The notes under the pieces: model-generated
Told to the model about the DNA's origin: nothing
Databases searched by the model: none
The model's input: only the letters and a program-made list of their open reading frames with translations
Shown here: positions 1 to 41,809 of the stretch, in pieces
Layout of the letters: each line of letters starts with the position of its first letter
Numbering within the stretch: position 1 is the stretch's first letter
Position numbers and translations under genes: made by a program
From: an uncultured Mycoplasmatota bacterium
GTDB lineage: Bacteria; Bacillota_I; Bacilli_A; RF39; UBA660
Direction: 5' to 3'
DNA length: 64,000 nucleotides
Assembly (NCBI GenBank): GCA_947574215.1
Contig: CANPIX010000002.1
Coordinates: 4,490-68,489 of the forward strand

Positions 1-1986
1 AGAAATACCTTGTAAATGGAATTTCAGCACCTGTTTTAACAACTGGCTTTTTAGCACTCATATCTTCTTCAAATTTTACTATTGCATCTGGAACATGTGG
101 CAATACTTCTTCACTCATATATTCATTAATATCTTTTTTATATTTAACTATTTCAGTATCTTTTGTAGTTTTATCAAGAATAATTTCGCCATTTTTATCT
201 CTATGTATTTCTGCAGTCTTATCCATTACAGATAAGCCATCTGCTATTTTGTCAATTAAATTTTTATTTACTTCTGTATTATCAAAGATATTTTTTAAAA
301 CATTAAGAAAATCTTTCTCATTTTTATAAATTTTATTACTTTTATTATTTTCTAAAATTTTAAAAATTAAATCATACGTATTTTTATTATTTAAGTATTT
401 ATCTAATTCTTTCTTCTCTTTATATGGAATTGGCTCTAACAATTGAATTTCATCAACTTTATCCTGATTATAAAATTTATCAAAAGTACCATTAGTTCTT
501 AATTGTTCAATTCTTTCATCATTTATAGAATAATTTCTTTGTAATGGTTGATAAACTGCATATTCTTTATACAAGAACTCCTCTTTATCGAATATTTTGC
601 TATATTTATTTTCTTTAAAATCTGCATATATCTTTACTATTTTTTCGATTTGTTTTAGAGATAATTCTTTCCTCTTTTTACCTAGTGAAGTTCTTAATTG
701 CGTCCAAAATTCTTTACCTGTTGCATTAATAAGTTGTATTTTATTTCTTCTTTCTGGTCTTTTAGTTGCTTCTTTAGAAAGAATAAATATATAAATACCA
801 ATACCAGTATTATAAAATAAATCAGTTGGTAATGCTATTATTGCTTCTATTAAATCTTGTTCTATCATCCATCTTCTTATTTGGCTTTCACCCGATGATG
901 TTCCACCAGAAAATAATGGTGATCCATTTGTAATAATAGCTGCTTTACCATTATTATCCAATTTAGAAATAGCATGTTGCATAAATAATAATTGCATATC
1001 TCCAGTAGCAGGCAATCCTGCTCCAAATCTTCCTTTAAAACCTAATTTATATTCATCTTTGACAGCTTCTTCTACACCTTCAGCAGCATCTTTCCCACCC
1101 CAAGGTTGTCCAAAAGGGGGATTCATGATAACAAACCTCATTTTTTGTTCTCGTTCATTTAATGTCGCTCTAAAACAGTCTTTAATCATTGTATCTTGAA
1201 ATTTAATATTATTAGCATTTTGACCTTTTATCATCATATCTGCCAAGCATATAGCATATGATTCAGGATTAACTTCTTGACCAAATAATTGAACATCTGC
1301 ATCTGGATTCATTTTCATAATTGTATCTCTTGCAGTGCTAAGCATTCCACCAGTACCACAAGCTGCATCTAATATAGTAATTGCTTTACCTGCTTCCATA
1401 AGATCATCACAACCTTCTGAAAGTAAAATATCTACCATCAACTTTATTACTTCTCTTGGAGTAAAATGATCACCAGCTTCAGCATTTTCTGAAAACCTTC
1501 TAATTATATCTTCAAAAATATATCCCATTTTATGATTATCAACAGTTTCAGGATTTAAATCTAAATTAGAAAATTCTTTAATAACACCTAATAATCTATT
1601 ATTTTTGTCCATTTTATCTATTTCTTTTTCAAATGATAAATTGTCAATAATTTCTTTAACATTTGGTGAAAAACCTTTTATATATGATTTAAAGTTATCA
1701 GCAATGTGATCAGCATCATTTAGTAATTCTTTTAAATCAAATTTACTAGTATTATAAAAAGAATAACCTGATTTTCTACACAACATTTTACATGGCGTTG
1801 TTTTATCGCTATTATATTCATCTAATACTGCTTTTTTAGTTTTAGCAAGTGCACACTCAAATCTTCTAATGATAACTATTGGTATTATTACATCTTTGTA
1901 TTTATCGCTTTTATATGGTCCTCTTAATTTATTTGCAATACTCCAAACTATATTTACCTCTTTTGTTACATTAATTGTATCATTCA
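1..1986 (-). CDS. hsdM: Type I restriction-modification DNA methyltransferase subunit HsdM (partial; 3' end runs off window start)
   Basis: Minus-strand ORF with ATG at 1986-1984, open to position 1. It is absent from the ORF track because the window edge truncates it. My translation shows an HsdM-type N-terminus (VWSIANKLRGPYKSDKYKDVIIPIVIIRRFE), SAM motif I LDAACGTGGML, DHFTPREV, catalytic motif IV IMNPPFG, IALPTDLF, and a C-terminal GAEIPFTRYF typical of Type I M subunits. Confidence 0.8.
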
Positions 1987-2204
1987 TCTTTTTTACCTCT
2001 CTTAACTACTGCTTGTTGCTTATTTTCATCAATTTTAATTTTGCAATCTTTTCGATTAGTCATTTTTACATCATTGTCTTCTAAATGAAATATAACCATA
2101 TCTCCTTCTTCTAGTTCCATTTTATCTCTAACAATTTTAGGAATGGTAATTTGTCCTTTTGAAGTTAATTTTGCATTTGCCAAAATTTCATTATCATTAT
2201 TCAT
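1980..2204 (-). CDS. AbrB/MazE (SpoVT_AbrB swapped-hairpin) family small DNA-binding protein. Possible antitoxin or R-M controller.
   Basis: 74 aa. The motif KGQITIPKIVRDKMELEEGDMV is a typical AbrB/MazE looped-hinge beta-barrel signature. Its stop overlaps the hsdM start (ATGAATGA, 8-nt overlap), implying translational coupling. Confidence 0.7.
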   Translation of the reverse strand: MNNDNEILANAKLTSKGQITIPKIVRDKMELEEGDMVIFHLEDNDVKMTNRKDCKIKIDENKQQAVVKRGKKDE

Positions 2205-2285
2205 AATTTTTTCCTTACTTTCCTTACTCTTAAGTATAGCATATTTTTAATTAAAGATAAATATCTGAACAAAAAAAGAAAGAAA

Positions 2286-3134
2286 TTAATCTTTCTTATC
2301 AAACAAATCTTTAACTATTAAATCCTGTGAATGTAAATTATTATTTTTACCTAATAATAAATTTTCATAAAATTTAACTAAATAGCTACTATTTTCTTTT
2401 ATTTTTAAATAGTTATTAAAGTAATTACTTCTGACTAAAGCGTTTCTAAAATATACTGATTTATCTTTAAATAAACTATTATCCACATTATAACCTAAAC
2501 TTATTAAATATTTTTCAATAAATAATGCTGTTGTTCTAGTATTACCTTCTCGAAAAGGATGCACTTGCCATATATTAGATGAAAATTTAGTTATATTGTT
2601 AATAACTTCAACTATATTCATTTCTTTATAGTTTTTTTCTTTTTCTAAAGATATATCATATTCTAATGATTGAGTTAATGTATTACAATCTCCATAAGCT
2701 ACTGAATCGTTATTTAAGATTTTTTCATGTTTAGAAAAATCAATTTTTCTAAATTCACCTGCAAATTCATAAACATCTTGAAATAAAAACTTATGAACAT
2801 ATTTTAAATAATCAACTGATAATTCAAAATTATCTTCATCTAATAATTCAACTATTCTAGCAGATACAAAATCACATTCTAATTCATTATGATTTATTTC
2901 ACTTTTATTTTCTTTTTCAATATAGTATTCTCTTAATTCTTTTTCTACTTCTTCTATAGTTAAATTGCCTTCTATGTTTTCTTCTAATAGTTTTTCTAAA
3001 TATTTAGAAGGTTTTAAATTATCTACTTCTTGAAGTCCAATAGCCATATCCCATTGTAATTGTTTTACATAGTTACTAAATTTATATTCTTCTTTATATT
3101 CATTAACACTTGAATCTAATTCTTTTTCGCTCAT
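2286..3134 (-). CDS. Fic/Doc family protein (Fic_N plus Fic core) with variant active-site motif HPFREGNTRTT
   Basis: 282 aa. The N-terminal region resembles Fic_N (LQEVDNLKPS...IEGNLTIEEV). The core motif HPFREGNTRTTALF matches the Fic consensus HPFx(D/E)GNGRxxR, with the second Gly replaced by Thr. Confidence 0.75.
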   Translation of the reverse strand: MSEKELDSSVNEYKEEYKFSNYVKQLQWDMAIGLQEVDNLKPSKYLEKLLEENIEGNLTIEEVEKELREYYIEKENKSEINHNELECDFVSARIVELLDEDNFELSVDYLKYVHKFLFQDVYEFAGEFRKIDFSKHEKILNNDSVAYGDCNTLTQSLEYDISLEKEKNYKEMNIVEVINNITKFSSNIWQVHPFREGNTRTTALFIEKYLISLGYNVDNSLFKDKSVYFRNALVRSNYFNNYLKIKENSSYLVKFYENLLLGKNNNLHSQDLIVKDLFDKKD

Positions 3135-3497
3135 AATTTATACCTCCTATTCACTTACAATTATAGCATATCTTAATATATTTTTTAATCTTTATATACT
3201 ACATTTTTACTCATTTTCATTTTTAATGTTTCAGTCCATCCAGAAAAGAGTAAAAAAATACAAAAACTCTTTTTTTAAGTCGATAAATAGGAAAAACCAA
3301 AGAAGTTACTAACAAAATAAAGTATAGATTATAAAATAATAAAGCAATGAAGTATGTAATAACAAAAAGTACTATTACATATATCAAAAAAAGTACTTAT
3401 AATTCTTTAACAACACTTTTAAATATTCAGTCTATTCCAAATATACAAAAACAAATAGAAACTATTCTATCTGCATTTTTTCGTATTTTTAATAAAT

Positions 3498-5219
3498 TTA
3501 AAGTTTATAATTAATATACATTAATTCCATACTATTATATAGCAAGTTTTGATAAATTTCTTTTAATAAATATTGGCAATACACTGATCTAGTGTCTATT
3601 TTTAAGTTTTCATTAAAACCTAAAACATATATTATTTTTTTATTTCTAAACATATCCTTAAACTCATTTTTAGAAATAATTCTTTTATCTTCTTCGTTTA
3701 ATTTATCATAATATTGTTCTAAAATATTAGGCTCATTATCCCTAGCTCTACTAATTATTGAAGATGAAGTAAATACTTGATTTTCTAAATCACGCATCCC
3801 TGGTCCATTAAATTCACTTTTATTACACATTAAATAAACCGAATCATCATCCCAAAAAATCAAGTCTGCTATTTCAACATTTTTAAAATTTTTTTTATGA
3901 GCAAAAATAACATCATCAGATTCTTTAAAGGTTTCATTGTAATCATCTTCACATTTTTCATTCTTTTTCAAATTAAACGTTTTTACAATGCTATCATCTT
4001 CGCTTAAAATTATATCGCAAATATCTTTGTATTGTTGATTTAACATAGCAAAATAAGAATCCTCAAAAACATACCATTCACCATTTAATAAATAATAACT
4101 ATCACTTTCAATTTCTAAACAACCACGTATTAATGTAATAATCTTTGTTTGTGGGATAATTGTGTGTCCATTATCATCTAGAGTTAATAAATAATTGGAA
4201 TTTAAAAAATTCTTTATAAAATTGATACTCTTTTTTTTCTTACATTGTTCTACCATTAAACTAATTAAATCATCAAAACTAATTGGTTCTTCTTTTTTCA
4301 TTATTATACTATCATTATTTTTTATGATAAATTTATCTGACGAGAAGTAAAATGTTTCAATATCATCAGCTATAACTTCAAATGTTTCTATATTATTATT
4401 CAAAATACAATCATATAACAAATTGTTCAAATCTGATTTTTTCTTTCTTTTTTTCTCAGCAGGTACAAAGTAATTTAGAATAAAGTTATCTTCTTTTTTT
4501 GAAAGTTCAGATAAAGTATTTAGTACATTTTCAAGTATTTCAATAGATATGCTTTTTCTTATAACAAAGGAATCTCCACTTGATACACCTATTAATTTTT
4601 TGCTCTCTTCTACTGGAATACCCAATTTAGGAGCAAGTTCATTAGATATTTGTATTGAAAGTTCCTTATATATGCTGCCAATGTTACTTTCAGCAACTAA
4701 ACTACTCATATTTTTTGTAACTCTTCTAGTTGTTAAATTATTTCCACTAGTATTATTTTCTACAATTCTTTTTAAAACTGGATTATTTTTTTGTATTAAT
4801 TTAGGCAATAAATATAATCCAAAATTTTTCTTAATAAATTTAGATATATAATTACTTCCATGTCCACCTGTCATAACATATATTTCATCAGCAACTATTT
4901 TAAAAATTATATATGAAGAACTATCATTAAATATCTTAAATATTGTTTCATTTTCTTCGGTCATTTCCATCAAATTTAATATCAACGACTTCCAAATTGG
5001 CTCTCTTCTACTTTTTATAAAAAATATATAATATCCATTTTTTTCGTTTTTCTTAACATGATCTCTGCCACCACTTTTATTTATATAACATTCTAAATAA
5101 AATAATAATTTGTCCAATAATTCCTCTGTGCTATTTGTTTCATCAACATTATCTAAATTATCTAATATCTGTTGTTTAGAAATTTTATAAATGCTAAATT
5201 GAATTTCCTCTTTGTCCAT
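3498..5219 (-). CDS. Hypothetical protein, 573 aa, of unknown function. Candidate defence-island gene.
   Basis: Long minus-strand ORF with AT-rich codon usage consistent with its neighbours. I see no Walker A, HTH or other recognisable catalytic motif. It lies directly upstream of fic, the abrB-like gene and hsdM on the same strand. Confidence 0.6.
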   Translation of the reverse strand: MDKEEIQFSIYKISKQQILDNLDNVDETNSTEELLDKLLFYLECYINKSGGRDHVKKNEKNGYYIFFIKSRREPIWKSLILNLMEMTEENETIFKIFNDSSSYIIFKIVADEIYVMTGGHGSNYISKFIKKNFGLYLLPKLIQKNNPVLKRIVENNTSGNNLTTRRVTKNMSSLVAESNIGSIYKELSIQISNELAPKLGIPVEESKKLIGVSSGDSFVIRKSISIEILENVLNTLSELSKKEDNFILNYFVPAEKKRKKKSDLNNLLYDCILNNNIETFEVIADDIETFYFSSDKFIIKNNDSIIMKKEEPISFDDLISLMVEQCKKKKSINFIKNFLNSNYLLTLDDNGHTIIPQTKIITLIRGCLEIESDSYYLLNGEWYVFEDSYFAMLNQQYKDICDIILSEDDSIVKTFNLKKNEKCEDDYNETFKESDDVIFAHKKNFKNVEIADLIFWDDDSVYLMCNKSEFNGPGMRDLENQVFTSSSIISRARDNEPNILEQYYDKLNEEDKRIISKNEFKDMFRNKKIIYVLGFNENLKIDTRSVYCQYLLKEIYQNLLYNSMELMYINYKL

Positions 5220-5463
5220 TCATTACACCTCACTTCAAAAAATAAGCAGTATCCATCTTAAAAAAGAATGATACTGCTGTTCTTAACTACACTATACAAC
5301 AAAATTCGACAATTTTTAATATTTGAAGCAAAATTTATTGAGAATCGTTATTTTTGTACCAATAATAGGTGCAAAAACTTAGTTTTAGTATACTTTATCA
5401 ACAAATTACTTTCGCTCAGATACAACCGTCTTAATACCCTTATAAATTTAATCCATGAGAGAG

Positions 5464-5745
5464 CTAAGTCTCTCCTCCTGCATTTATGTGATTAGATACT
5501 AAAATCACATCGCTTCCTTTTCCATAAAAACTTTGTGCCCTTCCAGGTCTCACATCAGGAGATAAAGTTTCATCAGTTGTTCTAGTCATACTGTTTTCAA
5601 TTCCTAAATCGTCCAAACGATTATGGATATATTCACTTATTTTTAATGTGTACTCTTTCTCAGTAATTCCATTTGCAATAGTTCCAGGATCTGTCCCACC
5701 ATGACCAGCATCCAAAACCACTTTTTTTGTTGCTCTTATAGACAT
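5464..5745 (-). pseudogene. N-acetylmuramoyl-L-alanine amidase (Amidase_3, CwlD-like) N-terminal remnant. Truncated after ~93 aa.
   Basis: Translation MSIRATKKVVLDAGHGGTDPGT...DVILVSNHINAGGET carries the Amidase_3 N-terminal motifs (DAGHGG, SNH.NA) but stops at roughly half the length of a functional domain. Its RBS, start and first codons are repeated at 7300-7375. Confidence 0.55.
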
Positions 5746-5790
5746 GTTTTTCACCTCTACTATAAAGTATGAAAAAAGCACAATTTTGTT
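5715..5790. repeat. Direct repeat copy A (~75 bp, ~85% identical to 7300-7375) covering the RBS and 5' end of the amidase remnant
   Basis: ccaaaaccactttttttgttgctcttatagacatgtttttcacctctactataaagtatga here versus ccgaaaccactttttttgttgatcttatagacatatttttcacctctactataagatatga at 7300-7375. Confidence 0.7.
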
Positions 5791-5966
5791 ATATTTATTT
5801 AAAATTTGAAAAAATATTTAATTTTAACGATTTCCGTTAATAAAATTAATAACACATTATTAATTCATAACCCCTTTATAAATGCTTTAATAAATTTTGT
5901 AGTTAACTATCTGCATCATAAAAAATCTGTTACAATTTAGTCGTATTTTCATAATTTTTTTACAAT

Positions 5967-6003
5967 TTAAAACCCTTAACATTTTTTCTACTAAGGGTTT
6001 TAA
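5967..6003. terminator. Perfect 12-bp stem-loop (ttaaaaccctta / taagggttttaa, 13-nt loop) in the intergenic region between the TNF-like gene B and the amidase remnant
   Basis: An inverted repeat seen directly in the sequence. It is followed on the plus strand by a T-rich tract (ttatatattattttt). It may act as a transcriptional terminator or insulator, possibly bidirectional. Confidence 0.4.
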
Positions 6004-6109
6004 TTATATATTATTTTTGATTAATTCTAGATAAACTTGCTTTTGTTTTTTTCTTATGTTATTAAGAACCCTATTTACAATAATTCTTTATTAATTTAAG
6101 TTATTGTTA

Positions 6110-6589
6110 TTAAACTTCTATTTTTTCTATTGTTAATACAAGTCCTTTCACTGTTGTATATTTTACTCCACCACTTGTAACCAGTTGAATTTGAACATTT
6201 TTTGCTTGATCTAATTTTATAGTTTTTGACATAGAAAATGTTAAATATTCCATATATTGGTTATTGTTATATAAATCTACGGAAATTAGAGTATTTCTAT
6301 CACCTGAATGAACATCTATTAATCGTAATAATAATTCTGAACTTATTCCATTTTGTGCCCATTGACCATTTAAATTAAATTCATATACTCCTGGTTCATC
6401 AATTAATACTTGATTACTACTTGCTGAAAAAATATTAGTATTCTGAGGAAATATATCACTTTGTTTAATTGTGAAAGTTCCAGACTTTCCATCATTATAT
6501 ATAACATTAATTGCTGCTTCTATACCACATGAGCCATAACAACCTTTGGGAACCACAAAATCTAGTTCATATTGCTCATTTGATTTCAT
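6110..6589 (-). CDS. Small C1q/TNF-like (BclA C-terminal-domain-like) protein, paralogue B
   Basis: 159 aa. The N-terminus YELDFVVPKGCYGSCG and the block EPGVYEFNLNGQ...LVLTIEKIEV resemble the paralogue at 6654-7112 and, by my recollection, the exosporium BclA C-terminal jelly-roll domain (ETGFYKIT...IIEKVA). Confidence 0.5.
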   Translation of the reverse strand: MKSNEQYELDFVVPKGCYGSCGIEAAINVIYNDGKSGTFTIKQSDIFPQNTNIFSASSNQVLIDEPGVYEFNLNGQWAQNGISSELLLRLIDVHSGDRNTLISVDLYNNNQYMEYLTFSMSKTIKLDQAKNVQIQLVTSGGVKYTTVKGLVLTIEKIEV

Positions 6590-6653
6590 TTTATCACCTA
6601 TAATAGATTATTCTATTTTACTAAAACTGATTGTATTGATGCACATTTTTATC

Positions 6654-7112
6654 TCATATTCTAATTTTTTTAATTGTAATATTTAACTGATTTGTAAAGG
6701 CCGTATCATTTGATGTAAGATACACTCGTAAACTTTTTATAGCGTCTATTTGTAAAATTTTTGTTTGTGAAAAAAACATTGTTGAAGATTGAAAAGCATT
6801 TGTTGTAAGTTCCACTGTTATAATATTTTCCATTACTGAAGTACCATAATCTATCATTTCTAAATATAAAGTGGCACTTTGAGCATTTTTTGATAATTTG
6901 CCACTCAAAGTAATTTCATAAAAACCTGTTTCATTTAATGCTATTTCATTATTTGCAATTGTAAAAATAGTTGTTGGATTAGGCAAAGTGTCATAACTAG
7001 TTATAGGCAACATTCCTTTTTGATTTTCTTGATAATTTGCAAATAAAATTGATTCTAAACCACAAGCTCCTTTTGGGATAACAAAATCTAGTTTATATTC
7101 ATCCAAATTCAT
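6654..7112 (-). CDS. Small C1q/TNF-like (BclA C-terminal-domain-like) protein, paralogue A
   Basis: 152 aa. YKLDFVIPKGACG, NETGFYEITLSGKL and a C-terminal ITIKKIRI. These blocks are shared with the 6110-6589 paralogue. Confidence 0.5.
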   Translation of the reverse strand: MNLDEYKLDFVIPKGACGLESILFANYQENQKGMLPITSYDTLPNPTTIFTIANNEIALNETGFYEITLSGKLSKNAQSATLYLEMIDYGTSVMENIITVELTTNAFQSSTMFFSQTKILQIDAIKSLRVYLTSNDTAFTNQLNITIKKIRI

Positions 7113-7299
7113 ATAATCACCTGTTAATATTTTATGAAATTTATTTTAATTTTGTATGGGACTTATACTATTTTTATTAAAAATTTTCATAATAAAAAAT
7201 ACTTTCCTATCGAAGTACCCTAATTCCTTGTATTTACTATTTCTTTATAACCATTTCTTTTATTTTTGAATTTAACAGATTTCTCGATGACTAGGCATC

Positions 7300-7375
7300 C
7301 GAAACCACTTTTTTTGTTGATCTTATAGACATATTTTTCACCTCTACTATAAGATATGATATTAACACAATTTAG
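7300..7375. repeat. Direct repeat copy B. A second copy of the amidase 5' end with RBS, ATG and 13 codons (MSIRSTKKVVSDA) then a stop.
   Basis: Reverse complement of 7293-7334 reads atgtctataagatcaacaaaaaaagtggtttcggatgcctag. This is ~85% identical to 5715-5790. Confidence 0.7.
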
Positions 7376-7432
7376 CAATTTTTACTTAAAGTTTTCCATT
7401 ATTAGCTAAAAAAATACAAATAAAAAACAGCT

Positions 7433-8524
7433 TTAACTCGCTGCTTTTGATAAATGAATTGTCGTTGTTTTAAGTTCACTACCGCGATAATAACTTATTT
7501 CAACTTTGTCTCCAACACTATGCTTATAAAGTTGATATTTCAAAAAAGCCAAACTCGTAATGTCTGCATCTCCAAGTTTTACAATAATATCTCTACTTTT
7601 TAACCCTGCTTTATCTGCAGGACTATCACTTTCTACTGTATCTATATACACTCCGCTCGTTACAGGAGCATCAACTCGAATTAAAATATCTGATAAATTA
7701 TACATAGAAACACCCAGATATGGTCTAGAAATACTTTCCCCCTTTTCAAATTTTTCTGCATACCACAATGCATCTTCAATTGGTATAGCAAAACCCATTC
7801 CTTCAATTTGACTGCTCGCAAGTTTCATAGACGTTATACCTATAACTTCACCATTTGAATTAGATAATGGTCCACCACTATTTCCAGAGTTAATTGCCGC
7901 GTCGGTTTGAATAACACTCATGACCCAATCACTAACATTATTATTTTTTAAACTCACCTCAACCATTCTATCTTTTCCAGATAAAATTCCTCTTGTAACA
8001 GTCCAAGAATAAGCACTGCTGTCGATTGGAGCCCCTACAGCAAACACAGTATCTCCAATTCTAGTTGCACTATTATTACCAAGTTGAGCAACACTTAAAA
8101 TATTTTTACTGTCCACTGTTAATACAGCAATATCTGCGTATTTGTCACTTCCAACAATTTTTGCCTCCACTGAACTATTATTAGTAAACACAACACGTAC
8201 GGCATCTCCACTTTCAATAACATGATTATTTGTTAAAATATAACCATTGCCATTTTCATTTTTATATACAAAACCTGTACCCGTAGCATACAATTTATCT
8301 TTTTTATAAGTTTCAATAGTTACTACTGAATCATAAACTTTCTCAACAGCGTCCGCTATGCCAGTTTCTGTTACGGTAACATCTTTAATGGTCTTAGTTA
8401 TATTTTCCGTTATATTCATTGGAGAATATTTAACTAAAGCAAACATGGAAAGAGATCCCAAAAAAAACACTCCCATTAAGACAACAACATATTTAACTAC
8501 TTTATTTATTTTATTTTCTTGCAT
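7433..8524 (-). CDS. htrA: HtrA/DegP-family trypsin-like serine protease with N-terminal TM anchor and C-terminal PDZ
   Basis: 363 aa. Catalytic triad contexts TNNHVIESG (His), DIAVLTV (Asp) and GNSGGPL (Ser). A hydrophobic N-terminal segment is present. Confidence 0.8.
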   Translation of the reverse strand: MQENKINKVVKYVVVLMGVFFLGSLSMFALVKYSPMNITENITKTIKDVTVTETGIADAVEKVYDSVVTIETYKKDKLYATGTGFVYKNENGNGYILTNNHVIESGDAVRVVFTNNSSVEAKIVGSDKYADIAVLTVDSKNILSVAQLGNNSATRIGDTVFAVGAPIDSSAYSWTVTRGILSGKDRMVEVSLKNNNVSDWVMSVIQTDAAINSGNSGGPLSNSNGEVIGITSMKLASSQIEGMGFAIPIEDALWYAEKFEKGESISRPYLGVSMYNLSDILIRVDAPVTSGVYIDTVESDSPADKAGLKSRDIIVKLGDADITSLAFLKYQLYKHSVGDKVEISYYRGSELKTTTIHLSKAAS

Positions 8525-8525
8525 T

Positions 8526-9455
8526 TCAATCTATCCTTTCTATTTCTAAATAATTAATGGGAAAACCCATTTTTTCTAAAACTTTTCCAATACTTATACT
8601 TTCTAATTTTCCATTTAATTTTTGTATTTCATAGTCAAGTTCTTTTATTAAAGAATGAAAATCATCTTTACGCAATAACTGCTTTAAAATAATAATTAAA
8701 GAAAATAAATCATCTTTACCATAAATATATTCCGATTCCAATTTAGGTATTTCTAATTTTTCATGAAATCTTGTATCATTAATTTTTCTTTGTACTCTGT
8801 GATCAAATAAAATTTCTTCATGAGCACACAAGTTTCGAAAATTAGCTAAAACGGGAAGATAAGTAGCCAAATCATTTGCATCTACCTTAAAAAACTCTGC
8901 AATGGCTTTCTGATCGCTTGGTTTCAAAATCAAAAAAAGTTCGCTAACAATCCCAAAAGACAAAACTTTCACGGCAATCCACAAAGGAATATATCCATAT
9001 CTTGAATTATAATGAGAAGTCGCTGTGTGACTATCAGCATTTGAACGAATCTGCCTTTTCATTTTATTAATCAAATCATTAATTTGCCTACGTTTCTCTG
9101 GGTGATTGTTAAAATTATTTGGATTTAAATAATCGTTTTCTTTAATACCATACGTTCTAGACAGATGGTACGAAATAAAACTTTTCAAATTATTTTCAAT
9201 AATCAGTAAATTTTTAAATAAAATATTTCGAACTTGACGATCAAAATTAAAAACGCCATACAATTGTCTAAAACTAGTTCCAGGAACAAAACTTTTATCT
9301 ATTAAAGATTTCATAAATAATGTTCGATATCCACTTATAAAGAAATAATTTTCACGTAGCAATATTTCTTTTGTCGCCGATACATCTTCAATAATCATCC
9401 CTTTGTTTTCTAAAATCAAAACCTGTTCATCTAAAGTTTTAAATATTTTATTCAC
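8526..9455 (-). CDS. Abi_2 family abortive-infection protein (AbiD/AbiF-like)
   Basis: 309 aa. The N-terminal pattern LDEQVLILENKGMIIEDVSATKEILLRENYFFISGY matches the Abi_2 (AbiD/AbiF) signature (..EQ..LL..RGL.I.D......L...NYYRLSGY). Its stop lies 1 nt from the htrA start. Confidence 0.75.
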   Translation of the reverse strand: MNKIFKTLDEQVLILENKGMIIEDVSATKEILLRENYFFISGYRTLFMKSLIDKSFVPGTSFRQLYGVFNFDRQVRNILFKNLLIIENNLKSFISYHLSRTYGIKENDYLNPNNFNNHPEKRRQINDLINKMKRQIRSNADSHTATSHYNSRYGYIPLWIAVKVLSFGIVSELFLILKPSDQKAIAEFFKVDANDLATYLPVLANFRNLCAHEEILFDHRVQRKINDTRFHEKLEIPKLESEYIYGKDDLFSLIIILKQLLRKDDFHSLIKELDYEIQKLNGKLESISIGKVLEKMGFPINYLEIERID

Positions 9456-9555
9456 ACTATCACCTTGCCCTACATTATATCATACTGGATAAGCAGAGTA
9501 TATAGTTTTCACGTGTCCTTTATGTTATAATATTGTGAAAGGAATGTGAAAATTT

Positions 9556-10524
9556 ATGCCATTAATTACAACACACAATTATTTTGCTAACGACGTTTTT
9601 TCTAAAACAAATAGTAACATTACGAAAACATTTCAAGAGAAAAAAAATATTTATGAACTTTTTGCACAAGGAACCGATCCATTTATCTTTTATGAATGCT
9701 TTCGCCCTAAAAAATCAGATTATCAACATCTTTGCCATACACAAAACACAGATATTTTTTTTCTAAGATTTATAAAAAAAATAAAAGAGAAAAAATTAAC
9801 ACAAAATCCATTGGTACTTGCGTCTCTTTATGGACAGTTAACTCACTATATACTTGATAGTACCATCCATCCTTATGTTGTTTACAAAACGGGATTTTAT
9901 AACAAAAAAGATAAAAATACTCTAAAATACAACGGTCTTCACAACCAATTCGAATTACAACTAGATGCTTATCTGTATGAACAAAGAGAAAAGAAAGCTT
10001 TTAAAAAGTTTAAAATACACAAATATTTAATTGCAAAAGAAAAATGGGATATAGAACTTATAATTTTACTAAATGAAATTTATTATGAAGTATACAATAT
10101 AAAAAATGGTGGTACAAAATTACAAAAAGGCTGTCACATAATGTATAATTCTTATAAATATTTAATAGAAGATAAAATAGGTATTAAAAAGAAAATTTAT
10201 AAATTATTAGATAAAATGACTCCTAAAAAAGTAGGTGTATACGAAAACTTTAATTCACATGTTACCAAAATAGATCTTTCTATACTAAATCAAAATCACA
10301 AAATTTGGTACAATCCTTGGGATAATTCCATAAAAAGTAAAGAATCTTTTTTTGATTTATACAATAAAGCACTAGAAGATTGTATTCTTCTATTTGAAGC
10401 CACCCATAAATTTTTAAATGATCAAATCACCGAGAAAGCATATAAAGATATATTAAAAGATAAATCTTACTTAACTGGATTATCTTGGAAATTAAATAAA
10501 GAAATTAAATATTTAGAGTTTTAA
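9556..10524 (+). CDS. Hypothetical protein, possibly zinc-dependent phospholipase C-like
   Basis: 322 aa. The N-terminus MPLITTHNYFANDVF resembles the His-containing N-terminus of zinc-dependent PLC-family proteins. It is the only plus-strand gene in the left half and overlaps the cwlD 3' end convergently by 12 nt. Weak call. Confidence 0.35.
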   Translation: MPLITTHNYFANDVFSKTNSNITKTFQEKKNIYELFAQGTDPFIFYECFRPKKSDYQHLCHTQNTDIFFLRFIKKIKEKKLTQNPLVLASLYGQLTHYILDSTIHPYVVYKTGFYNKKDKNTLKYNGLHNQFELQLDAYLYEQREKKAFKKFKIHKYLIAKEKWDIELIILLNEIYYEVYNIKNGGTKLQKGCHIMYNSYKYLIEDKIGIKKKIYKLLDKMTPKKVGVYENFNSHVTKIDLSILNQNHKIWYNPWDNSIKSKESFFDLYNKALEDCILLFEATHKFLNDQITEKAYKDILKDKSYLTGLSWKLNKEIKYLEF

Positions 10525-11172
10525 ACTACCCATAGCCTCCGCGATAATTCGAGCTAACTTTTTTTGATAATCTTCTTTCACTAAAAGGGTTCTTTCGTGT
10601 GCATTAGACAAAAAGCCACACTCAATTAAAACACCTTCTACTTTTAATTCCTTATACATATAAGTAGAACTCGGTATTAATTTTATTTCTCTATTGGTTT
10701 TTAAAGATTTATTAAGTTCATTTTGAATATGTTCCGCAATAACTTTATTATTTTCTTTTTTCTTATTATAAAAAACTTGTGGTCCATAATAATTTGAATC
10801 ATCTAAGTAATTCAAATGGATTGACAAATAATAATTTGCACCACTATTATTAATCATTTTGATTCGATTATCAAAATCACTCTTCTTACGCCAAGAAGCA
10901 TTTGGCTTAGACAAATCATAATCTTCATTGCGAATTAATATGACACTTGCCCCAAGTTTAGTAAGTTCACTCTCTAATGCTTTAGAAATAGCAAGATTAA
11001 TATCTTTTTCATAAATAGTACCAGACATTGTACCTGGGTCTGCTCCACCATGTCCAACATCAACAACTATTAATTTTCCGGATAAAGGCAAACTAGCTAG
11101 CACAATTTTATTAGCAAAGCAGAGTATCATAACAACAAATAAAATACTAATTTTATAAAAATAACTTTTCAT
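10513..11172 (-). CDS. cwlD: Germination-specific N-acetylmuramoyl-L-alanine amidase CwlD
   Basis: 219 aa with a signal/TM N-terminus and Amidase_3 motifs (VVDVGHGGADPG, YLSIHLN). It lies downstream of rpsI as in B. subtilis (rplM-rpsI-...-cwlD). Confidence 0.8.
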   Translation of the reverse strand: MKSYFYKISILFVVMILCFANKIVLASLPLSGKLIVVDVGHGGADPGTMSGTIYEKDINLAISKALESELTKLGASVILIRNEDYDLSKPNASWRKKSDFDNRIKMINNSGANYYLSIHLNYLDDSNYYGPQVFYNKKKENNKVIAEHIQNELNKSLKTNREIKLIPSSTYMYKELKVEGVLIECGFLSNAHERTLLVKEDYQKKLARIIAEAMGSLKL

Positions 11173-11430
11173 ATTAAACTATATGCAAATAAAAAGGAAA
11201 TAAACTTTAATTCTTTTCCTAATTTATTTAATATGATTCCATTCGTTTTACTTTTCTTTTAAGTTTTTAATAACCAAAAACGTATCTTTAAAATTTCTCA
11301 GATTTATAAGAAAAACAAGTAAAAAATACTTTTTACTTCCAATTCGTTTGATACTAAATTTTTATTAATATATTCTTTTTTATAAATTAAAAAAACCCAC
11401 CAAAATAGGCAAGTTTTTATGAAAATATTT

Positions 11431-11853
11431 CTAACGTTTACTAAATTGTGGTGCACGACGTGCTTTTTTAAGTCCTGGTTTCTTACGTTCTTTAATTCTC
11501 GGATCTCTTGTAACAAAACCAGCTGTTTTTAAAATCTTACGATAAGAATCATCTCTAGTTTGATCAGAATTAGCATCATACTTTAAAAGTGCACGTGTAA
11601 TTCCTAAACGAATAGCTCCTGTTTGACCAGAAAAACCTCCACCCTTAACATTAACTGTAATGTCAAATTTATTTTCATTATTGGTCATAGTTAAAGGTTG
11701 TTTCAAATCCATTACTAGCGTTTGATAAGGCATATAATCATTAACATCTACTCCATTAATAATTATGTTACCCGTTCCACCAGTAAGTGTTACTTGGGCA
11801 CTAGAACGTTTTCTACGTCCTGTTGCAGTCCAACTTTGTTTACTTGTAGCCAT
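11431..11853 (-). CDS. rpsI: 30S ribosomal protein S9
   Basis: 140 aa. GGGFSGQTGAIRLGITRAL and a C-terminal KKARRAPQFSKR. Confidence 0.9.
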   Translation of the reverse strand: MATSKQSWTATGRRKRSSAQVTLTGGTGNIIINGVDVNDYMPYQTLVMDLKQPLTMTNNENKFDITVNVKGGGFSGQTGAIRLGITRALLKYDANSDQTRDDSYRKILKTAGFVTRDPRIKERKKPGLKKARRAPQFSKR

Positions 11854-11862
11854 AATACCCTC

Positions 11863-12294
11863 CTAATCCACTTTCAATTCTATAGGTTGTTGTGCTGATT
11901 GTTTGTGTTCTGCACCAGCATAAACAAATAACTTTTTCGCCATTTGTCTTCCAAGTCTATTATGAGGAAGCATTCCTTTAATAGCTCTTTCAACCATTTC
12001 TTCTGGATAATTTTCAATCATAGTTTTGGCATTACGTTCTCTAAGTCCACCTGTATAACCACTATGATTATAATACATCTTATCGTTTAACTTATTACCA
12101 GTTAAATTAACTTTTGAAGCATTTACTATAACTACATAATCTCCACAATCAACGTGAGGAGTATATGTAACTTTGTGTTTACCTCTTAAAATTGTTGCAG
12201 CTTTTGTAGCCACACGACCTAAATTCTTACCACTTGCATCAATCACATACCACTTGCGTTCAATATTTTCTTTTTTTTGCATGAATGTTTTCAT
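11863..12294 (-). CDS. rplM: 50S ribosomal protein L13
   Basis: [20 protein letters not shown] is a canonical L13 N-terminus. The true start is probably the internal Met (12294) rather than the ORF-track start at 12312. Confidence 0.9.
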
Positions 12295-32493: not shown

Positions 32494-32525
32494 TAAAAAA
32501 ATGTTCCACGTGGAACATTTTTTTA
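32494..32525 (-). terminator. Rho-independent terminator after gyrA (perfect palindrome atgttccacgtggaacat flanked by A/T runs; bidirectional)
   Basis: An 18-nt perfect palindrome at 32501-32518 immediately after the gyrA stop (32523-32525), followed on the minus strand by T7. Confidence 0.7.
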
Positions 32526-35024
32526 ATCACTAGAAATCTGATTTTCCTTTTCTTCTGCTGATAAACTATTTTCATTTGTTTCCAAAACAGTTTCATCTTC
32601 TTCTATCATTTCTGGAGTTTTTTCAACTAAACTTATATTCGATACTTCCTGATTTTCTTTTAAATTAATAACTCTTACTCCTTGAGTAACTCTTCCCAAA
32701 ATATTAATTTGATCAAGTGGTACTCTTATTACCATACCTGTATTCGTAATGATAACTAAGTCACTATTTTCTTGAGCTAATCGGAATGCCGCCATCGAAC
32801 CATTTTTTTCTGTGATATTAAGTGCTTTTACTCCTTTGCTTCCTCTTCTTGTTTGTCGATAATCACTAATTTTGGTTTGTTTTCCATAACCTTTTTTAGT
32901 AACAATAATTAAGGAATCATTATCTGTTGCAATTTCTGCACCAATACACTCCCCACCATCTAAGTTAATTCCACGAACTCCACTAGCAGTTCTTCCCATA
33001 ACTCGAATTTCATCTTCAATAAATTTGACCATTCTTCCATTATCTGACCCTAACAATATACAATCAGATCCTGTCGTCTTTTGAACTGAAATGAGTTCGT
33101 CATTTGGTCGTAAACTAATACAAATTTTACCATTATTACGTATACTATCAAATTCGGTAATACTAGTTCTTTTAACAATTCCTAATTTTGTAGCAAACAA
33201 TAAATATTTAGCTGTATCTTCTCTTTTTACACTTAAAATAGAATTAATTTTTTCTTCTTTTTCAATTTGCAACAAGTTGATAACTGGTAATCCTTTAGAT
33301 TGACGACTAAACTCTGGTATTTCATACCCCTTTAAACGATACACTTTTCCTTTATTCGTAAAGAATAAAATATAATCATGTGTGGATAAGTTTACCAAAT
33401 GTTCAACAAAATCTTCTTCATTGGTATTCATACCCTTAATTCCTACTCCACCACGATTTTGTAATTTAAAAGTATCAGAAGTTGTACGTTTAATATAACC
33501 ATTGTGAGTAAGTGCTATCATTATGTCTTCTTCTGGTATTAAAGATTCATCTTCAATAAATTCAATAGCGGACATATCAATATTTGTTCTTCTCTCATCT
33601 GCATATTTGTTTTTAATTTCAAGAAGTTCTTCTCTTATAATACCAAGAATTTTTTCTTCACTTGCTAAAATACTTCTTAACTCTTCTATTGATTTTAATA
33701 ATTCTGCAAGTTCATTTTCAATTTTTTCGCGTTCCAATCCAGTCAAACGACGCAATTTCATTTCTAGAATTGCATTGGCTTGAATATCATCAAGACCAAA
33801 TTTTGCCATCAATTGTTCTTTAGCAATAATATCAGTTGCAGATTCACGAATAGTTTTAATAACTTCGTCTAAATGATCCAAAGCAATTTTTAAACCTTCT
33901 AAAATATGAACTCGATCCAAAGCTTTATCTAAATCGTATTGTGTTCTTCGAATAATAATTTCTTTTTGATAATCAATATATTTCGATAAGATATCTTTAA
34001 GTCCAAGTATTTTTGGTGAACCTTGATCAATCATCAACAAATTAATACCATAAGTGGTTTGCAATTGCGTGTATTTATATAAATTATTTAATACTACATT
34101 TGCGTTAGCATCACGTTTTAAATAAATAACCACACGAACTGGATTTTCTAAATTTGATTCTTCATGAAGTTCACTAATTCCATCAATAATTTTGTCACGA
34201 ACCAGTTCTCCAATACGAGACTGAAATTCTGCTTTATTTACTTTATAAGGTAAAGCTGTAACCACAATTCGAGTTTTGCCACCATCTTCTTCAATATCAG
34301 CCTGTCCACGAATCGTAATAGAACCTTTACCTGTTTCGTAAGCCTTTCTAATACCGCTATTCCCTAAAATAGAGGCTCCAGTTGGAAAATCAGGTCCTTT
34401 AATGTATTGCATTAATCCATCCGTATCAATTTCATGATTATCAATATAGGCAACACAACCATCAATGACTTCTCCTAAATTATGTGGTGGTATATTAGTA
34501 GCCATACCAACAGCTATTCCCATTGTTCCATTTACTAAAATATTAGGAAATCGACTCGGTAAAATAACAGGTTCACTTTCTGTTTCATCAAAATTTGGGA
34601 CAAAATCAACAGTATTCTTATTTAAATCACGAGTCATTTCCAAAGCAAGTTTTGAAAGTCTTGCTTCCGTATAACGCATGGCAGCTGCACCATCACCATC
34701 CATATTACCAAAGTTCCCATGACCATCCACAAGCATATGTCGATAAGTAAAATCTTGAGCCATTCCCACCATAGCTTCATAAATAGATGAATCACCATGA
34801 GGATGATATTTACCCATTACATCTCCAACAATTCTGGCACTTTTACGATGTGGTTTATCGGGAGTATATCCAGATTCATACATGGAATACAAAATACGAC
34901 GATGAACTGGTTTTAAACCATCACGAAGGTCTGGAATCGCACGAGCGGTAATAACACTCATAGAATAATCTAAAAAGGATTTTTGTACTTCTTGTACGAT
35001 ATTATTTTCTATAATTCTTTCCAT
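32523..35024 (-). CDS. gyrA: DNA gyrase subunit A
   Basis: 833 aa. [18 protein letters not shown], the active-site Tyr region ([10 protein letters not shown]), the QRDR ([13 protein letters not shown]) and C-terminal beta-pinwheel repeats. Confidence 0.95.
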
Positions 35025-35033
35025 ATAAACCTC

Positions 35034-38049
<3,016 letters not shown>

Positions 38050-38155
38050 ATTTAGCCTCTTTTACGCCCGTATAATAAAATAATAGGTATTTATGTACTC
38101 CTATACCTATTAAAATTATATCATAAAAAACACACTATTTGTAATTTTTTTCTGT

Positions 38156-38641
38156 TTATTTTTGAATTTTTCGATCTTTCAATACGGATTCTAATCTTGT
38201 TGCTCTCAATATTTGATTATTAATCGTTTCATAAGAAATATTTAATAAAATTTTATCCCCATTTTTAAATTCTACTACTAAGTGATTGTTTTGGTAATAA
38301 TAATTTTTAATTTTATTAGAACGCAACCAAGAACAATTTTTTTGTTTTGGACTAGATGTAGGAAAAAAAATTAAATCTTTACTTTCTTCTACGATTATTG
38401 GAACTTTATAGGTGACACCAATTAAATTATTTGTCCCTTTCTTTCTTCCATCCATAGAACTTCCAAAATAAGAACAACTGGTTTCCATAATTTCATTTGC
38501 AGATTGATCTACCACAAAATTTTTATCTTCCTCATAAATTCTTGTTTTATTAGACATAGAAAATAATGCAACCGTATTTTCATTGATCTCATACTTTTCC
38601 ATAGTTTCACCTCCCACCTGATTAAAATTGTTTTCTATCAT
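38156..38641 (-). CDS. comK: ComK-family competence transcription factor homologue
   Basis: 161 aa. SCSYFGSSMDGRKKGT, LIFFPTSSPKQKNCSWL and NNQILRATRLESVLKDR align with B. subtilis ComK blocks (SCRFFGSSYAGRKAGT, IFLFPTLSSTRPQCGWI, ENQVYRTAWLRTKFQDR) as I recall them. Confidence 0.6.
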   Translation of the reverse strand: MIENNFNQVGGETMEKYEINENTVALFSMSNKTRIYEEDKNFVVDQSANEIMETSCSYFGSSMDGRKKGTNNLIGVTYKVPIIVEESKDLIFFPTSSPKQKNCSWLRSNKIKNYYYQNNHLVVEFKNGDKILLNISYETINNQILRATRLESVLKDRKIQK

Positions 38642-38692
38642 AAAACCTTAAAAAGAAAAATTTTGTCGGAAAATGAAAAAACTTACTATTTT

Positions 38693-39811
38693 TTAGTAAG
38701 TTTTAATTGGTAGAATAAGTTGAATTAAAGATTCATCACTGATTGATTTTATTACAATTGGTTTTACATCATCAGTCATTAATAACAAGATTTCCTCTTC
38801 TTTAATAGTTTTTAAAGCCTCTAACATATACTTTGAACTAAAAGAAATATCTATAGCAGAACTTGTATCTGTATCTACGATAAGTTTTTCTTCTACTTTT
38901 CCAATTTCTGAAGCATAGGAATTAATCGTAATCACTTTATTCTCTAATTTCATTTTTATAATATTTTTATCTTTTCCTTGAGTAAGTAATGCAGCTCTAT
39001 CTACACTAGCAGAATACTCATCTTTATTAACTTTTACTATAATGCCGTACTCTGTAGGAATTAAATTGGAAGTGTTGGGATAAGTTCCTGATAAAAGATT
39101 GGTTTGAAATTTTATATTTTTATATTTAAATAATACTTTATTATTGAAAATATGCATTTCTACTTCCTCTTCGTCCGTAATTATTTTTTCCAATTCAATA
39201 ATATTTTTTCCTGGTATAACAATATTCACGTCCGTAGATATAGGACTATCTAATTTAACATTTTTCTTGGCCAATCGATAAGAATCTGTTGCAATAAATA
39301 GAAGCTCATCTCCAATAATTGAAACATTTACCCCAGTTAATAAAGGACGAAGTTCTTGATTGGATATGGCAAAAACCGTTTGATTAATTAAAGATTTTAA
39401 TACATCCCCTTTTAAAAGAATTGGATCCTTATGTTCTTCTAACTTTAAATTAGGATAATCATTTGCGTCTAAACAATTTAAGTTAAATTGAGCATTTTCT
39501 GTATAAATTCTTATTTTTAAACGATCAATTACTTCAAAATTAATTGTGTCACTAGGTAGTTTTCTAACTATATCTAATAAAAATTTACTTTGAATAATTA
39601 TTGTTCCTGTTGTCCCTATATTTTGAATTTCTTTTTCTTCAATATAAGAGGTAATGGTAAGTTCACTATCACTCGCGGTTAGAAAAAGTCCTTTATTCGT
39701 TAATTCAAATTTAATTCCATTTAAAACTGGAATAACATTTTTTGTAGATACCCCTTTTATTACATTGTTTAAGTTTTCTAATAAAATAGTTTTCGAAATT
39801 GTAAATTTCAT
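38693..39811 (-). CDS. dnaN: DNA polymerase III beta sliding clamp
   Basis: MKFTISKTILLENLNNVIKGVS is a typical DnaN N-terminus, and the protein has three-domain length. The likely start is 39811. The ORF track extends it to 39838. Confidence 0.9.
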   Translation of the reverse strand: MKFTISKTILLENLNNVIKGVSTKNVIPVLNGIKFELTNKGLFLTASDSELTITSYIEEKEIQNIGTTGTIIIQSKFLLDIVRKLPSDTINFEVIDRLKIRIYTENAQFNLNCLDANDYPNLKLEEHKDPILLKGDVLKSLINQTVFAISNQELRPLLTGVNVSIIGDELLFIATDSYRLAKKNVKLDSPISTDVNIVIPGKNIIELEKIITDEEEVEMHIFNNKVLFKYKNIKFQTNLLSGTYPNTSNLIPTEYGIIVKVNKDEYSASVDRAALLTQGKDKNIIKMKLENKVITINSYASEIGKVEEKLIVDTDTSSAIDISFSSKYMLEALKTIKEEEILLLMTDDVKPIVIKSISDESLIQLILPIKTY

Positions 39812-39854
39812 TTGTTTTTCCTTCTTTCTTTTTTTCAATTTTTTTATTTTTATT

Positions 39855-39960
39855 ATAGTGTGGATAACGTGTATAAGTCGTTTTTCTATTGAAATAACTG
39901 AAAAATTTGTAGTGGATAACTTTTTCTTTTGTCTTTCTTTTTTTTAAACTTATCCACTTT
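39855..39960. promoter_or_regulatory. oriC segment 2: DnaA-box cluster in the dnaA-dnaN intergenic region plus an AT-rich putative unwinding element
   Basis: tgtggataa (39859-39867, perfect), agtggataa (39911-39919) and ttatccact (39950-39958), with T/A-rich tracts between them. Confidence 0.7.
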
Positions 39961-39961
39961 T

Positions 39962-41317: not shown

Positions 41318-41379
41318 ATTCCATCACCCCACTCTTTGCTACTTTATGTAATTTCATTTTATCTCAATAAATTTGGATT

Positions 41380-41610
41380 GAAAAGTAAAAAAACATATCC
41401 ACATAACTATCCACAAGTTATCCACTAAAATTTCCATTATAATATCTTACTTTTTGTTATTTATCAACATTATCCACAAATTTCGTTTTTTTTCATTGTC
41501 CACATGTTACTATCTTATATTAAAAAAAGTGGACTTGGTTTATAACTCTCTTTCTTTTAGATATAGATTAAAAAATTATCCACATAGAATTATGATTTAT
41601 AAGAAAGGAA
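41380..41610. promoter_or_regulatory. oriC segment 1: DnaA-box cluster upstream of dnaA
   Basis: atatccaca (41415-41423), ctatccaca (41427-41435), ttatccact (41438-41446), ttatccaca (41490-41498, perfect), ttgtccaca (41516-41524) and ttatccaca (41596-41604, perfect). All are in the same orientation. Confidence 0.8.
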
Positions 41611-41777: not shown

Positions 41778-41809
41778 AAGGAGACTTTAAATTTAAAGGA
41801 GGAACGATT

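Follow-up and report, generated by a model that had tools for sequence, protein, structure and literature searches.

Probable fossil attachment site and remnant of an integrative mobilizable element at a twice-targeted amidase gene in uncultured spore-forming gut Bacilli

The stretch studied here, called the window, is 64,000 nucleotides (nt) of DNA from an uncultured Mycoplasmatota bacterium (GenBank assembly GCA_947574215.1, contig CANPIX010000002.1, positions 4,490 to 68,489). Near its beginning, the 5' end of an amidase gene occurs twice in direct orientation, and the two copies bracket two small genes whose products resemble C1q and tumour necrosis factor (TNF) domains. All the genes in the analysed part of the window lie on the minus strand, and they are described below in the direction of transcription; the contigs and genomes compared are referred to by locus numbers (L001 and so on). 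We consider it highly probable that the locus records several insertions by large serine recombinases (LSRs): the first copy would be a fossil left attachment site (attL), the DNA behind it the remnant of an integrative mobilizable element (IME), the second copy a target that other elements have used again, and the premature end of the amidase reading frame the edge of a separate insertion.

The host gene encodes an amidase of about 400 residues, with an Amidase_3 domain and four LysM domains in intact orthologues, and lies downstream of a gene for an HtrA-like protease. The hosts are uncultured, spore-forming gut Bacilli, with records under Tenericutes, Erysipelotrichaceae, Candidatus Onthocola or Candidatus Ventrenecus. 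In the window, the HtrA-like gene (7433-8524) is the native left neighbour of the amidase locus, and its intrinsic terminator, found by a terminator scan at 7423-7448, belongs to the same native chromosomal flank. In L037 and L097, the amidase gene directly follows the HtrA gene.

After the HtrA gene comes the first copy of the repeat, copy B (7287-7394), with the native amidase promoter, the ribosome-binding site (RBS) and an ATG at 7332 that opens 13 codons (MSIRSTKKVVSDA) before a stop, as had been predicted from the sequence of the window. It is followed by a left end (7113-7286), consisting of a P' arm (AGAAATCTGTTAAATTCAAAAAT...) and a conserved non-coding region that was aligned with L012, L015, and L019; the gene for a 152-residue TNF/C1q-like protein resembling the C-terminal domain of BclA (6654-7112); its paralog for a 159-residue protein (6110-6589); a hairpin terminator of this pair (5967-6003); an interior fragment of a MobV (Mob_Pre) relaxase gene (5893-5961); and an 85-nt stretch (5808-5892) that matches only L027 and holds the junction that created the duplication. 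Copy A (5701-5807) then provides an amidase promoter, an RBS, an ATG at 5745, and codons 1-15 of the amidase.

Positions 5708-5807 and 7295-7394 aligned without a gap over 100 nt at 85% identity, and the homology extended to 5701 and 7287 once one gap was allowed. The duplicated 5' end is therefore real, and longer than the approximately 75 bp first claimed. A 50-nt core pattern of the repeat occurred exactly twice in the window and in none of 100 shuffles. The open reading frame (ORF) that starts in copy A (amidase 5' fragment, 5464-5745) has 93 codons, namely amidase codons 1-91 and two read-through codons, and stops at 5464-5466. It matched positions 1-78 of the 174 in the Pfam Amidase_3 profile (E 4e-18); these are the only profile positions encoded, and a complete Amidase_3 catalytic domain in one frame is absent from the window.

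The right edge of copy A was examined by strain comparison. The exact 159-residue protein was present on 13 metagenome contigs, ten of which were compared with the window. These ten same-species contigs were about 99% identical to the window from 11200 to exactly 5700-5702, at which point most of them diverged, and the junctions all lay directly after ...GGATGCTGGTCA (reading from the ATG of copy A, ...GTGGTTTTGGATGCTGGTCA). Four continuations past this point were seen, the window's own included. In the window and L003, the amidase reads on (TGGTGGGACA); in L001 and L006, the continuation is TGACAGATAC (also written TGACAGATACAG), followed by sortase, Rep, and FtsK genes and a 624-residue gene; in L002, L004, L008, L009, and L010, it is CCCGAGG or CCCAAGG, followed by Fic, Mob_Pre, and other genes; and in L007, it is CCCAAGTTTGG. 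Because several different DNAs are joined to the amidase gene there, the right edge of the repeat bears the signature of a site-specific attachment site. These junctions show copy A to be a target that at least three other types of IME have used again in sister strains. Its crossover CA lies at 5703-5702, within GGT CAT GGT, and the target GGTCATGGTGG is intact and unoccupied in the window and in L003.

Every examined contig with this exact HtrA protein, from several independent samples, carried the module between the repeats, in one copy each, and the arrangement is therefore not an assembly artefact. The module is fixed in this species, in which the variable position is instead the target in copy A. 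The copy-number variation for which the original prediction had suggested looking was not seen, and we found no related genome that combined the same arrangement with a full-length amidase. A simple local tandem duplication, or an artefact of assembly or binning with no mobile elements involved, might be suspected, given that the source is uncultured and that assemblies of repeated regions can be chimeric. We consider this extremely improbable, as at least 10 contigs, assembled independently from several samples, and a second species (L027) show the same arrangement, and the boundary of the repeat matches to the base the junctions of four element types.

As judged from sequence comparison, two clades of LSR, carried on IMEs, use two fixed points of the amidase gene. 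At site 1, the target is the CA within the His codon (codon 15) of the motif D-A-G-H-G-G and is written GGTCATGG; site 2 lies just past H-I-N-A-G-G (codon 91). Judged from the bases that they share, all the site-1 junctions fit one putative crossover dinucleotide, namely this CA, in GGT-CAT-GG. In L011 and L012, from a related species, the start of the amidase reads ...GATGCAGGCCATGG and is followed by TAGATACTCTTATACCAAGAC. The site-1 element of L012 is 8.4 kb long and carries Rep, FtsK, and a 632-residue LSR; the amidase resumes from residue 14 after ...TTGGTATAGCAGTATCAAGGGCATGG, 20 nt past the stop of the LSR gene. Read by eye, the ends of this element form an imperfect inverted repeat like that of an LSR attP, the attachment site of the free element.

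Further complete site-1 cases came from a scan of GTDB species genomes. L087 contains, in order, HtrA, the amidase start, GACATGG/AGAAATCGGTTAAATCCAAAAATGG... (the slash marks the junction), cargo, a gene for a 542-residue LSR, and then ...TTTTGGATTTTTCCTATTCCTCCACATGG/GGGTACAGATCC. The element of L078 is of the L087 type, with a Mob_Pre relaxase directly past the left end, and the LSRs of L087 and L078 (542 and 535 residues, respectively) contain Resolvase, Recombinase, Zn_ribbon, and DUF4368 domains. L029 and L030 carry elements of the L002 type with a 532-residue LSR. Reconstructed site-1 attP sites of these relatives show inverted-repeat arms by eye; the right arm is missing in the window. 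Joining attL and attR (the right attachment site) in silico in L012, L087, and L029 restored ...DAGHGG... as in intact genes. Among 80 species genomes, 11 loci begin at residue 13-15, which corresponds to the site-1 right junction (four were checked by eye). LSR sequences were 38-88% identical within the site-1 group, 46-57% within the site-2 group, and 27-35% between the groups.

A side observation concerns the right end of the L078 element (9965-10001 of that locus). There, the stop of the recombinase gene is at 9965, and an amidase ORF of 457 residues begins in frame with an ATG at 9974. This element may provide the amidase with a substitute start codon, whose use may be coupled to translation of the recombinase; the elements of L087 and L029 provide none.

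Comparison with these complete elements identified the probable nature of copy B. Window positions 7314-7183, the right flank of copy B, shared 75% identity with the left end of the element in both L087 and L078 (1351-1477 of L087 and 680-844 of L078 in BLAST). The junction GTCATCG/AGAAATCTGTTAAATTC of copy B aligns base for base with the L087 attL, GACATGG/AGAAATCGGTTAAATCC. Copy B reads ...GGATGCCTAGTCA/TCGAGAAATCTG, and its homology to copy A stops at the same base. Its crossover CA (7289-7288) is the same CA at which the junctions of four independent element types lie. Compared with a live attL, copy B shows decay: CATGG has become CATCG, a 1-nt insertion makes the TAG stop, and the 'AC' of the -35 region is gone. 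We thus interpret copy B as a decayed site-1 attL and the module as cargo of an immobile IME remnant.

The same left end, from 8 nt off the junction, was found together with the pair of genes for the 152- and 159-residue proteins in two other lineages. In L012, both lie upstream of the amidase. In L015-L020 (for example, L015 3819-5822), they lie between pheT and yabP/yqfD and are joined to the host DNA at CATG; this locus looks like a secondary site into which elements of the same family integrate. The joining CATG in L015-L020 sits inside a 97-residue ORF resembling a secreted protein. Past the hairpin, L012 and L015 contain a decayed MobV relaxase gene, recognised by the motif MDELKPHIHCVALPL. 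The corresponding piece in the window is 70 nt of relaxase interior (5893-5961), the last recognisable part of the remnant, and is 78.6% identical to L029 2311-2380, inside a split relaxase ORF. The DNA from 7287 to about 5893 would thus represent the left portion of an IME whose relaxase and recombinase have been lost. A stretch at about 5925-5950 resembled an inverted left arm and was considered as the right arm of the element; it was rejected, being homologous to the relaxase coding interior of L029 and L030.

The region of L078 that corresponds to the conserved non-coding left end immediately precedes the MobV relaxase gene, and by its position this region may contain an origin of transfer (oriT); neither an oriT nor a nic site was identified in the insert (7287-5893). 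Searches of 50,697 phage and 72,556 plasmid records by tblastn gave no match to the 159-residue protein.

The repeats might be taken as the two ends of one insert. A form of this view holds that the 1.6-kb module is an integrated element with copy B as attL and copy A as attR, either a tyrosine-recombinase island that brings a replacement 5' end or a cis-mobilizable element (CIME), which could still be moved in trans. CIMEs are decayed, att-flanked elements of the families of integrative and conjugative elements in Streptococcus thermophilus; they keep attL and attR and undergo accretion via one of them. Direct repeats of about 100 nt do flank a discrete gene pair, the same pair stands at another locus in another species, and copy A restores a start codon and a promoter. 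The remaining evidence makes this explanation very unlikely. There is no integrase in or near the module, and the core of copy B is mutated and followed by a stop codon. The right end of the complete relatives is an LSR gene with a short inverted-repeat arm, not an amidase-like repeat; at the other locus, the flanking repeat is lacking and a relaxase pseudogene follows the module. All contigs of the species also contain the module, and none shows an empty site.

No LSR gene was found between the repeats, although L087 and L078, complete relatives whose left ends are homologous, have one; because no recombinase is encoded, we classified the insert as a remnant rather than as an element. Its right boundary contains neither an element right arm nor an attR, and consists of the amidase promoter and the intact attB (the unoccupied chromosomal attachment site) of copy A; because an attR is missing, the insert is not a CIME. 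Like a CIME, it lacks genes for recombination and transfer and lies at an integration site beside a site that new elements use, but it has only a dead attL, and the neighbouring site is a complete, duplicated attB. With high confidence in the attL, the remnant, and the attB readings, the 1.6-kb insert is best called a fossil attL with an IME remnant, as far as can be deduced by comparison. Copy A and copy B are accordingly not the two ends of one insert, one being a dead attL and the other a complete, usable attB with its own promoter. The earlier view of the locus as the scar of a recombination or insertion that disrupted the amidase gene holds in that there is an insertion scar in this gene and that the small-protein module was brought in; the event was site-specific LSR integration rather than a generic one, and only the left part of the insert survives.

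The stop of the amidase frame after 93 residues has a different origin. A search with the 93-residue fragment gave 440 proteins with E below 1e-10, and the best 120 of the 440 were all 88-163 residues long, each of them showing the same split. All of the 20 homologues that were read ended in ...SNHINAGG, followed by at least seven families of tails. Among the 80 species genomes, 45 continue with ...NAGGGDGAEVIY... to about 400-455 residues and 31 stop within a few codons of NAGG. Occupancy among the species genomes is about 39% at site 2 and about 14% at site 1, and three loci among the 80 carry both insertions. In the window, the site-2 junction lies at about 5473/5472, right after ...HINAGG.

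A whole site-2 element of 6.5-9.7 kb was found in five loci (L043, L053, L069, L072, and L092). Near its right end, each encodes an LSR-like protein of 488-535 residues, assigned by sequence similarity and by N-terminal motifs recognised by eye; the amidase then continues from GDGAE. When attL and attR of the five loci were joined in silico, the result was ...NAGGGDGAE... as in intact genes; the attB junction of site 2 (attB2) is written ...AATGCAGGAGG+TGGTGATGG... The cargo of these elements includes type I restriction-modification genes, cytosine methyltransferases, and Fic. The stop at 93 residues in the window is thus attributed, by comparison of the junctions, to the left junction of a separate, unrelated site-2 LSR element with defence genes; the truncated ORF proposed earlier is real, whereas its stop is not part of the scar at the repeats.

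The left part of this site-2 element fills positions 1-5472 and runs off the window; its right end and its recombinase lie outside. Its cargo consists of a DUF6119/TIGR04141 gene (3498-5219), a Fic gene (2286-3134; PADLOC PDC-S72, E 1e-80), a gene for a MazE-like antitoxin (1980-2204), and an hsdM gene with N6_Mtase and HsdM_N domains (from about 1999 to beyond position 1). The first 2.3 kb, comprising the amidase fragment and the DUF6119 gene, are 87% identical to L060, while the amidase protein of L060 is only 74% identical. The 3' half of the amidase was found neither in the window nor in the same-species contigs. In other species, many site-2 and site-1 elements contain Fic genes related to that of the window.

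Integration by an LSR produces no 100-nt duplication of its own, and an additional event is therefore needed to explain copy A. The history that we propose has five steps. First, an IME of the L087/L078 type would have integrated at site 1, giving an attL composed of the native promoter, 14 codons, and the left arm of the element; the comparisons at copy B argue directly for this step. Second, and with similar support, deletion of the relaxase and recombinase would have made the element immobile, and the attL would have decayed into copy B, leaving the left arm, the conserved non-coding stretch, the gene pair with its terminator, and the 70-nt relaxase fragment. Third, a second amidase promoter and 5' end would have been placed behind the remnant, creating an expressible start and a fresh site-1 target; the resulting structure is seen in the window, and the mechanism is our suggestion. 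Fourth, as the sister strains show, at least three other IME types have since used copy A. Fifth, and independently, the junction after HINAGG shows that a site-2 IME with defence genes split the gene past codon 91.

The third step could have taken place as a tandem duplication that covered the promoter and part of the element, after which an LSR excised the complete element copy downstream, or as a one-sided, homology-facilitated illegitimate recombination with an intact allele. Our confidence on how copy A arose is moderate to low. The recombination course implies that copy A was imported: DNA from another strain or species with an uninterrupted amidase would have entered by one crossover in the body of the amidase and one illegitimate crossover inside the remnant, deleting the right part of the element and installing a foreign promoter and 5' end. 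In favour of import, the left part of the old element is retained and the right part lost in the window as in L090. Copy A groups with L027, L021, L026, and L029, while copy B is as close to the L028 orthologue as to copy A, and the 85 nt upstream of copy A have no counterpart upstream of copy B. The divergence of 15% between the copies can also be explained by decay of a non-functional copy, no donor lineage was identified, and the duplication in L090, at 98.3% identity, fits a duplication in situ at least equally well. We therefore regard import as a possible course for this one step, though a somewhat doubtful one.

In L090, 233 nt of the amidase 5' end are duplicated at that identity, and a similar architecture has arisen independently. 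Positions 1-1800 of L090 contain, in order, a site-1 attR, amidase codons 15-91, a site-2 attL, a 1.1-kb remnant with a DUF3800 gene, and a fresh promoter; this promoter, which resembles those of the sporulation factor sigma-K, heads codons 1-91 and a different site-2 attL. Because L090 shows the same architecture independently, rebuilding of the type seen at copy A recurs at this locus.

Several points weigh against the history of a fossil attL, an IME remnant, a re-used copy A, and a site-2 insertion. The window lacks the recombinase, the right arm, and most of the relaxase of the element that made copy B, so that the assignment of copy B as attL depends on about 170 nt of left-end homology (75% identity) and on the matching position of the junction. 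The crossover dinucleotide was deduced only from shared bases. No excision or integration was observed, and all the att sites were deduced from comparison. The extra event in the third step is undocumented here, and the near equidistance of the sequences (85% identity between copies A and B, 84% between copy B and the L028 orthologue, and 84% between copy A and L028) does not separate a duplication in situ from an imported allele. An empty site 2 was not found in this species in one metagenome scan with the site-2 left arm of the window joined to the intact continuation; the scan returned only distant species, at 67-71% identity.

The two small proteins are paralogs with 32% identity (E 4e-28). 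A word-based search gave only four close clusters, and a profile search of 1.84 billion representatives gave 70 relatives. Most of the relatives from the profile search are stand-alone proteins of 150-170 residues, and several have collagen-like GXY repeats before the domain; the two window proteins have no such repeats. A first structure model, based on a 6-sequence alignment, had a mean predicted local distance difference test score (pLDDT) of 58.5 and was dropped; it was replaced after the profile search. The 159-residue protein was chosen for modelling. In fold comparison, the model scored 13-14.4 with TNF-family ligands, 13.1-13.2 with the BclA C-terminal domain (1wck and 3twi), 12.0 with the F-BclA tip of endospore appendages, 11.8 with ExsFA, and about 11 with C1q domains; Foldseek also listed BxpB. 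The modelled fold is a TNF-like jelly-roll, and the earlier label "C1q/TNF-like" is correct on the evidence of the predicted fold.

Neither protein of the window matched Pfam, including PF18573 (BclA_C), nor did they match in NCBIfam and PADLOC scans. The sole match in PHROGs, to a minor tail protein (E 0.008), was marginal and was not used. One distant relative has a weak, sub-threshold match to BclA_C. In L106-L109, distant homologues occur as adjacent pairs of 157 and 164 residues and of 159 and 165 residues. In one pair, the second member (the neighbour of P0126) is marked as weak BclA_C; one pair adjoins a 709-residue serine recombinase, and another lies between genes for a Mur ligase (MurD-like) and enolase.

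The window proteins share their predicted TNF/C1q-like fold with the BclA C-terminal domain, ExsFA/BxpB, and F-BclA of the spore surface in the Bacillus cereus group. Unlike BclA, they have only about 13% identity to it, no Pfam BclA_C match, and no collagen region (a degenerate PKGxxGxxG is present), and they form a paralog pair on a mobile element. We infer that they are probably trimeric surface proteins, plausibly of the spore surface. The stem-loop behind the pair, which had also been predicted, is real: the hairpin at 5967-6003 has a folding free energy of -15.7 kcal/mol (z = -5.3) and is conserved in L012, L015, and L019, and in another lineage one stem pair has apparently changed on both sides, as read by eye.

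The amidase promoter may point to a role in sporulation. The motif AC-N16/17-CATANNNTA was found directly upstream of the RBS in 57 of 66 species (scored by script as KCACM-N16/17-CATANNNTA), and the remaining nine look by eye like mis-placed start codons. It matches the Bacillus subtilis sigma-K consensus, KCACM / GCATANNNTA (PMC3416734). Copy A has AC at 5789-5788 and CATACTTTA at 5771-5763, and the gene for the 152-residue protein has AC at 7155-7154 and CATAAAATA ending at 7128. These (copy A 5789 and gene 152 7155) are the only two sites in the window at which a sigma-K-like motif abuts an RBS and a start codon (0.08 in shuffles). Because this promoter is conserved and the hosts carry sporulation genes, including spoVG, yabP, yabQ, cwlD, and yqfD, a late role of the amidase in the mother cell is plausible.

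It is conceivable, by analogy, that the inserted elements are excised during development, as skin is. The LysM amidase might then be a sigma-K-controlled, late mother-cell enzyme with up to two unrelated LSR elements, at GHGG and NAGG, present in the germ-line copy and removed in the skin manner as the mother cell terminally differentiates. An element that lost its recombinase would trap the gene, and the lineage would escape by duplicating the promoter and 5' part again behind the fossil. We consider this proposal rather unlikely; many related species have an uninterrupted amidase.

Several features outside the locus were also recorded. An AbiD/Abi_2 abortive-infection gene lies at 8526-9455 (PADLOC AbiD, E 7e-58), between a phospholipase-C-like gene and HtrA; because its position is kept in L011, L022, L028, and other related species, it seems to belong to the stable core neighbourhood rather than to island cargo. 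At about 32500-42000, the ORFs flip from the minus to the plus strand at about 41.3-41.9 kb, and the sizes of the ORFs on the minus side fit the series dnaA, dnaN, recF, gyrB, and gyrA; judged from ORF orientation and sizes alone, the window may span the replication origin. An Rfam scan of 1-12000 and a tRNA scan of the whole window gave no match, and the amidase site is therefore not an attachment site of the tRNA or non-coding RNA type.

In kind, the elements at the amidase gene are ordinary: LSR-driven mobilizable elements inside a conserved gene. Recombinases of the TnpX/TndX type are of a related known kind. IMEs with an LSR and a MobV relaxase have been catalogued in the Firmicutes, in streptococci (PMC5357655, PMC5704250). 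Like them, the site-1 and site-2 relatives are small (6-10 kb), have the LSR gene at one end, carry a Mob_Pre or Rep/FtsK module, insert inside a conserved coding gene at short att sites with inverted-repeat arms, and transport defence or accessory cargo. They differ in that the target is an Amidase_3-LysM gene, entered at two different motifs by two recombinase clades; what the window contains is a fossil without a recombinase. Intervening elements of sporulation genes that serine recombinases excise in the mother cell are also known, namely skin in sigK, SPbeta in spsM, gin in gerE, vfbin, and vrin (PMC4191935, PMC5595907, PMC5025042). As in the skin, SPbeta, and gin type, an LSR element splits a coding region in a spore-former, in-silico joining restores the frame exactly, and the gene has a conserved sigma-K-type promoter and so may be expressed late in the mother cell. 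In contrast to that type, the amidase elements are no single domesticated prophage but a diverse and polymorphic set of IMEs that carry relaxases and defence genes.

In the literature searched, we found no report of the amidase as a target of LSRs or intervening elements, which does not prove novelty. The target gene, its use at two motifs by two clades, the high occupancy, and the recurrent rebuilding of the 5' end behind a fossil appear to be new.

Our findings mean that hundreds of "truncated amidases" reported by gene callers in gut Bacilli are halves of one gene split by mobile elements, and that an odd repeat can be read as the record of past events at a single chromosomal hotspot. Defence cargo (type I restriction-modification, Dcm methyltransferases, Fic, and DUF6119) has landed at this locus repeatedly. 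As candidate recombinase systems, the locus also offers two natural LSR/attB families with many attP variants on the same two motifs. If the sigma-K reading is true, the amidase would be a further member of the small group of sporulation genes under the control of DNA excision, and the reading would suggest mobile spore-surface proteins in uncultured gut spore-formers, the TNF/BclA-like pair being a horizontally transferred spore-surface module.

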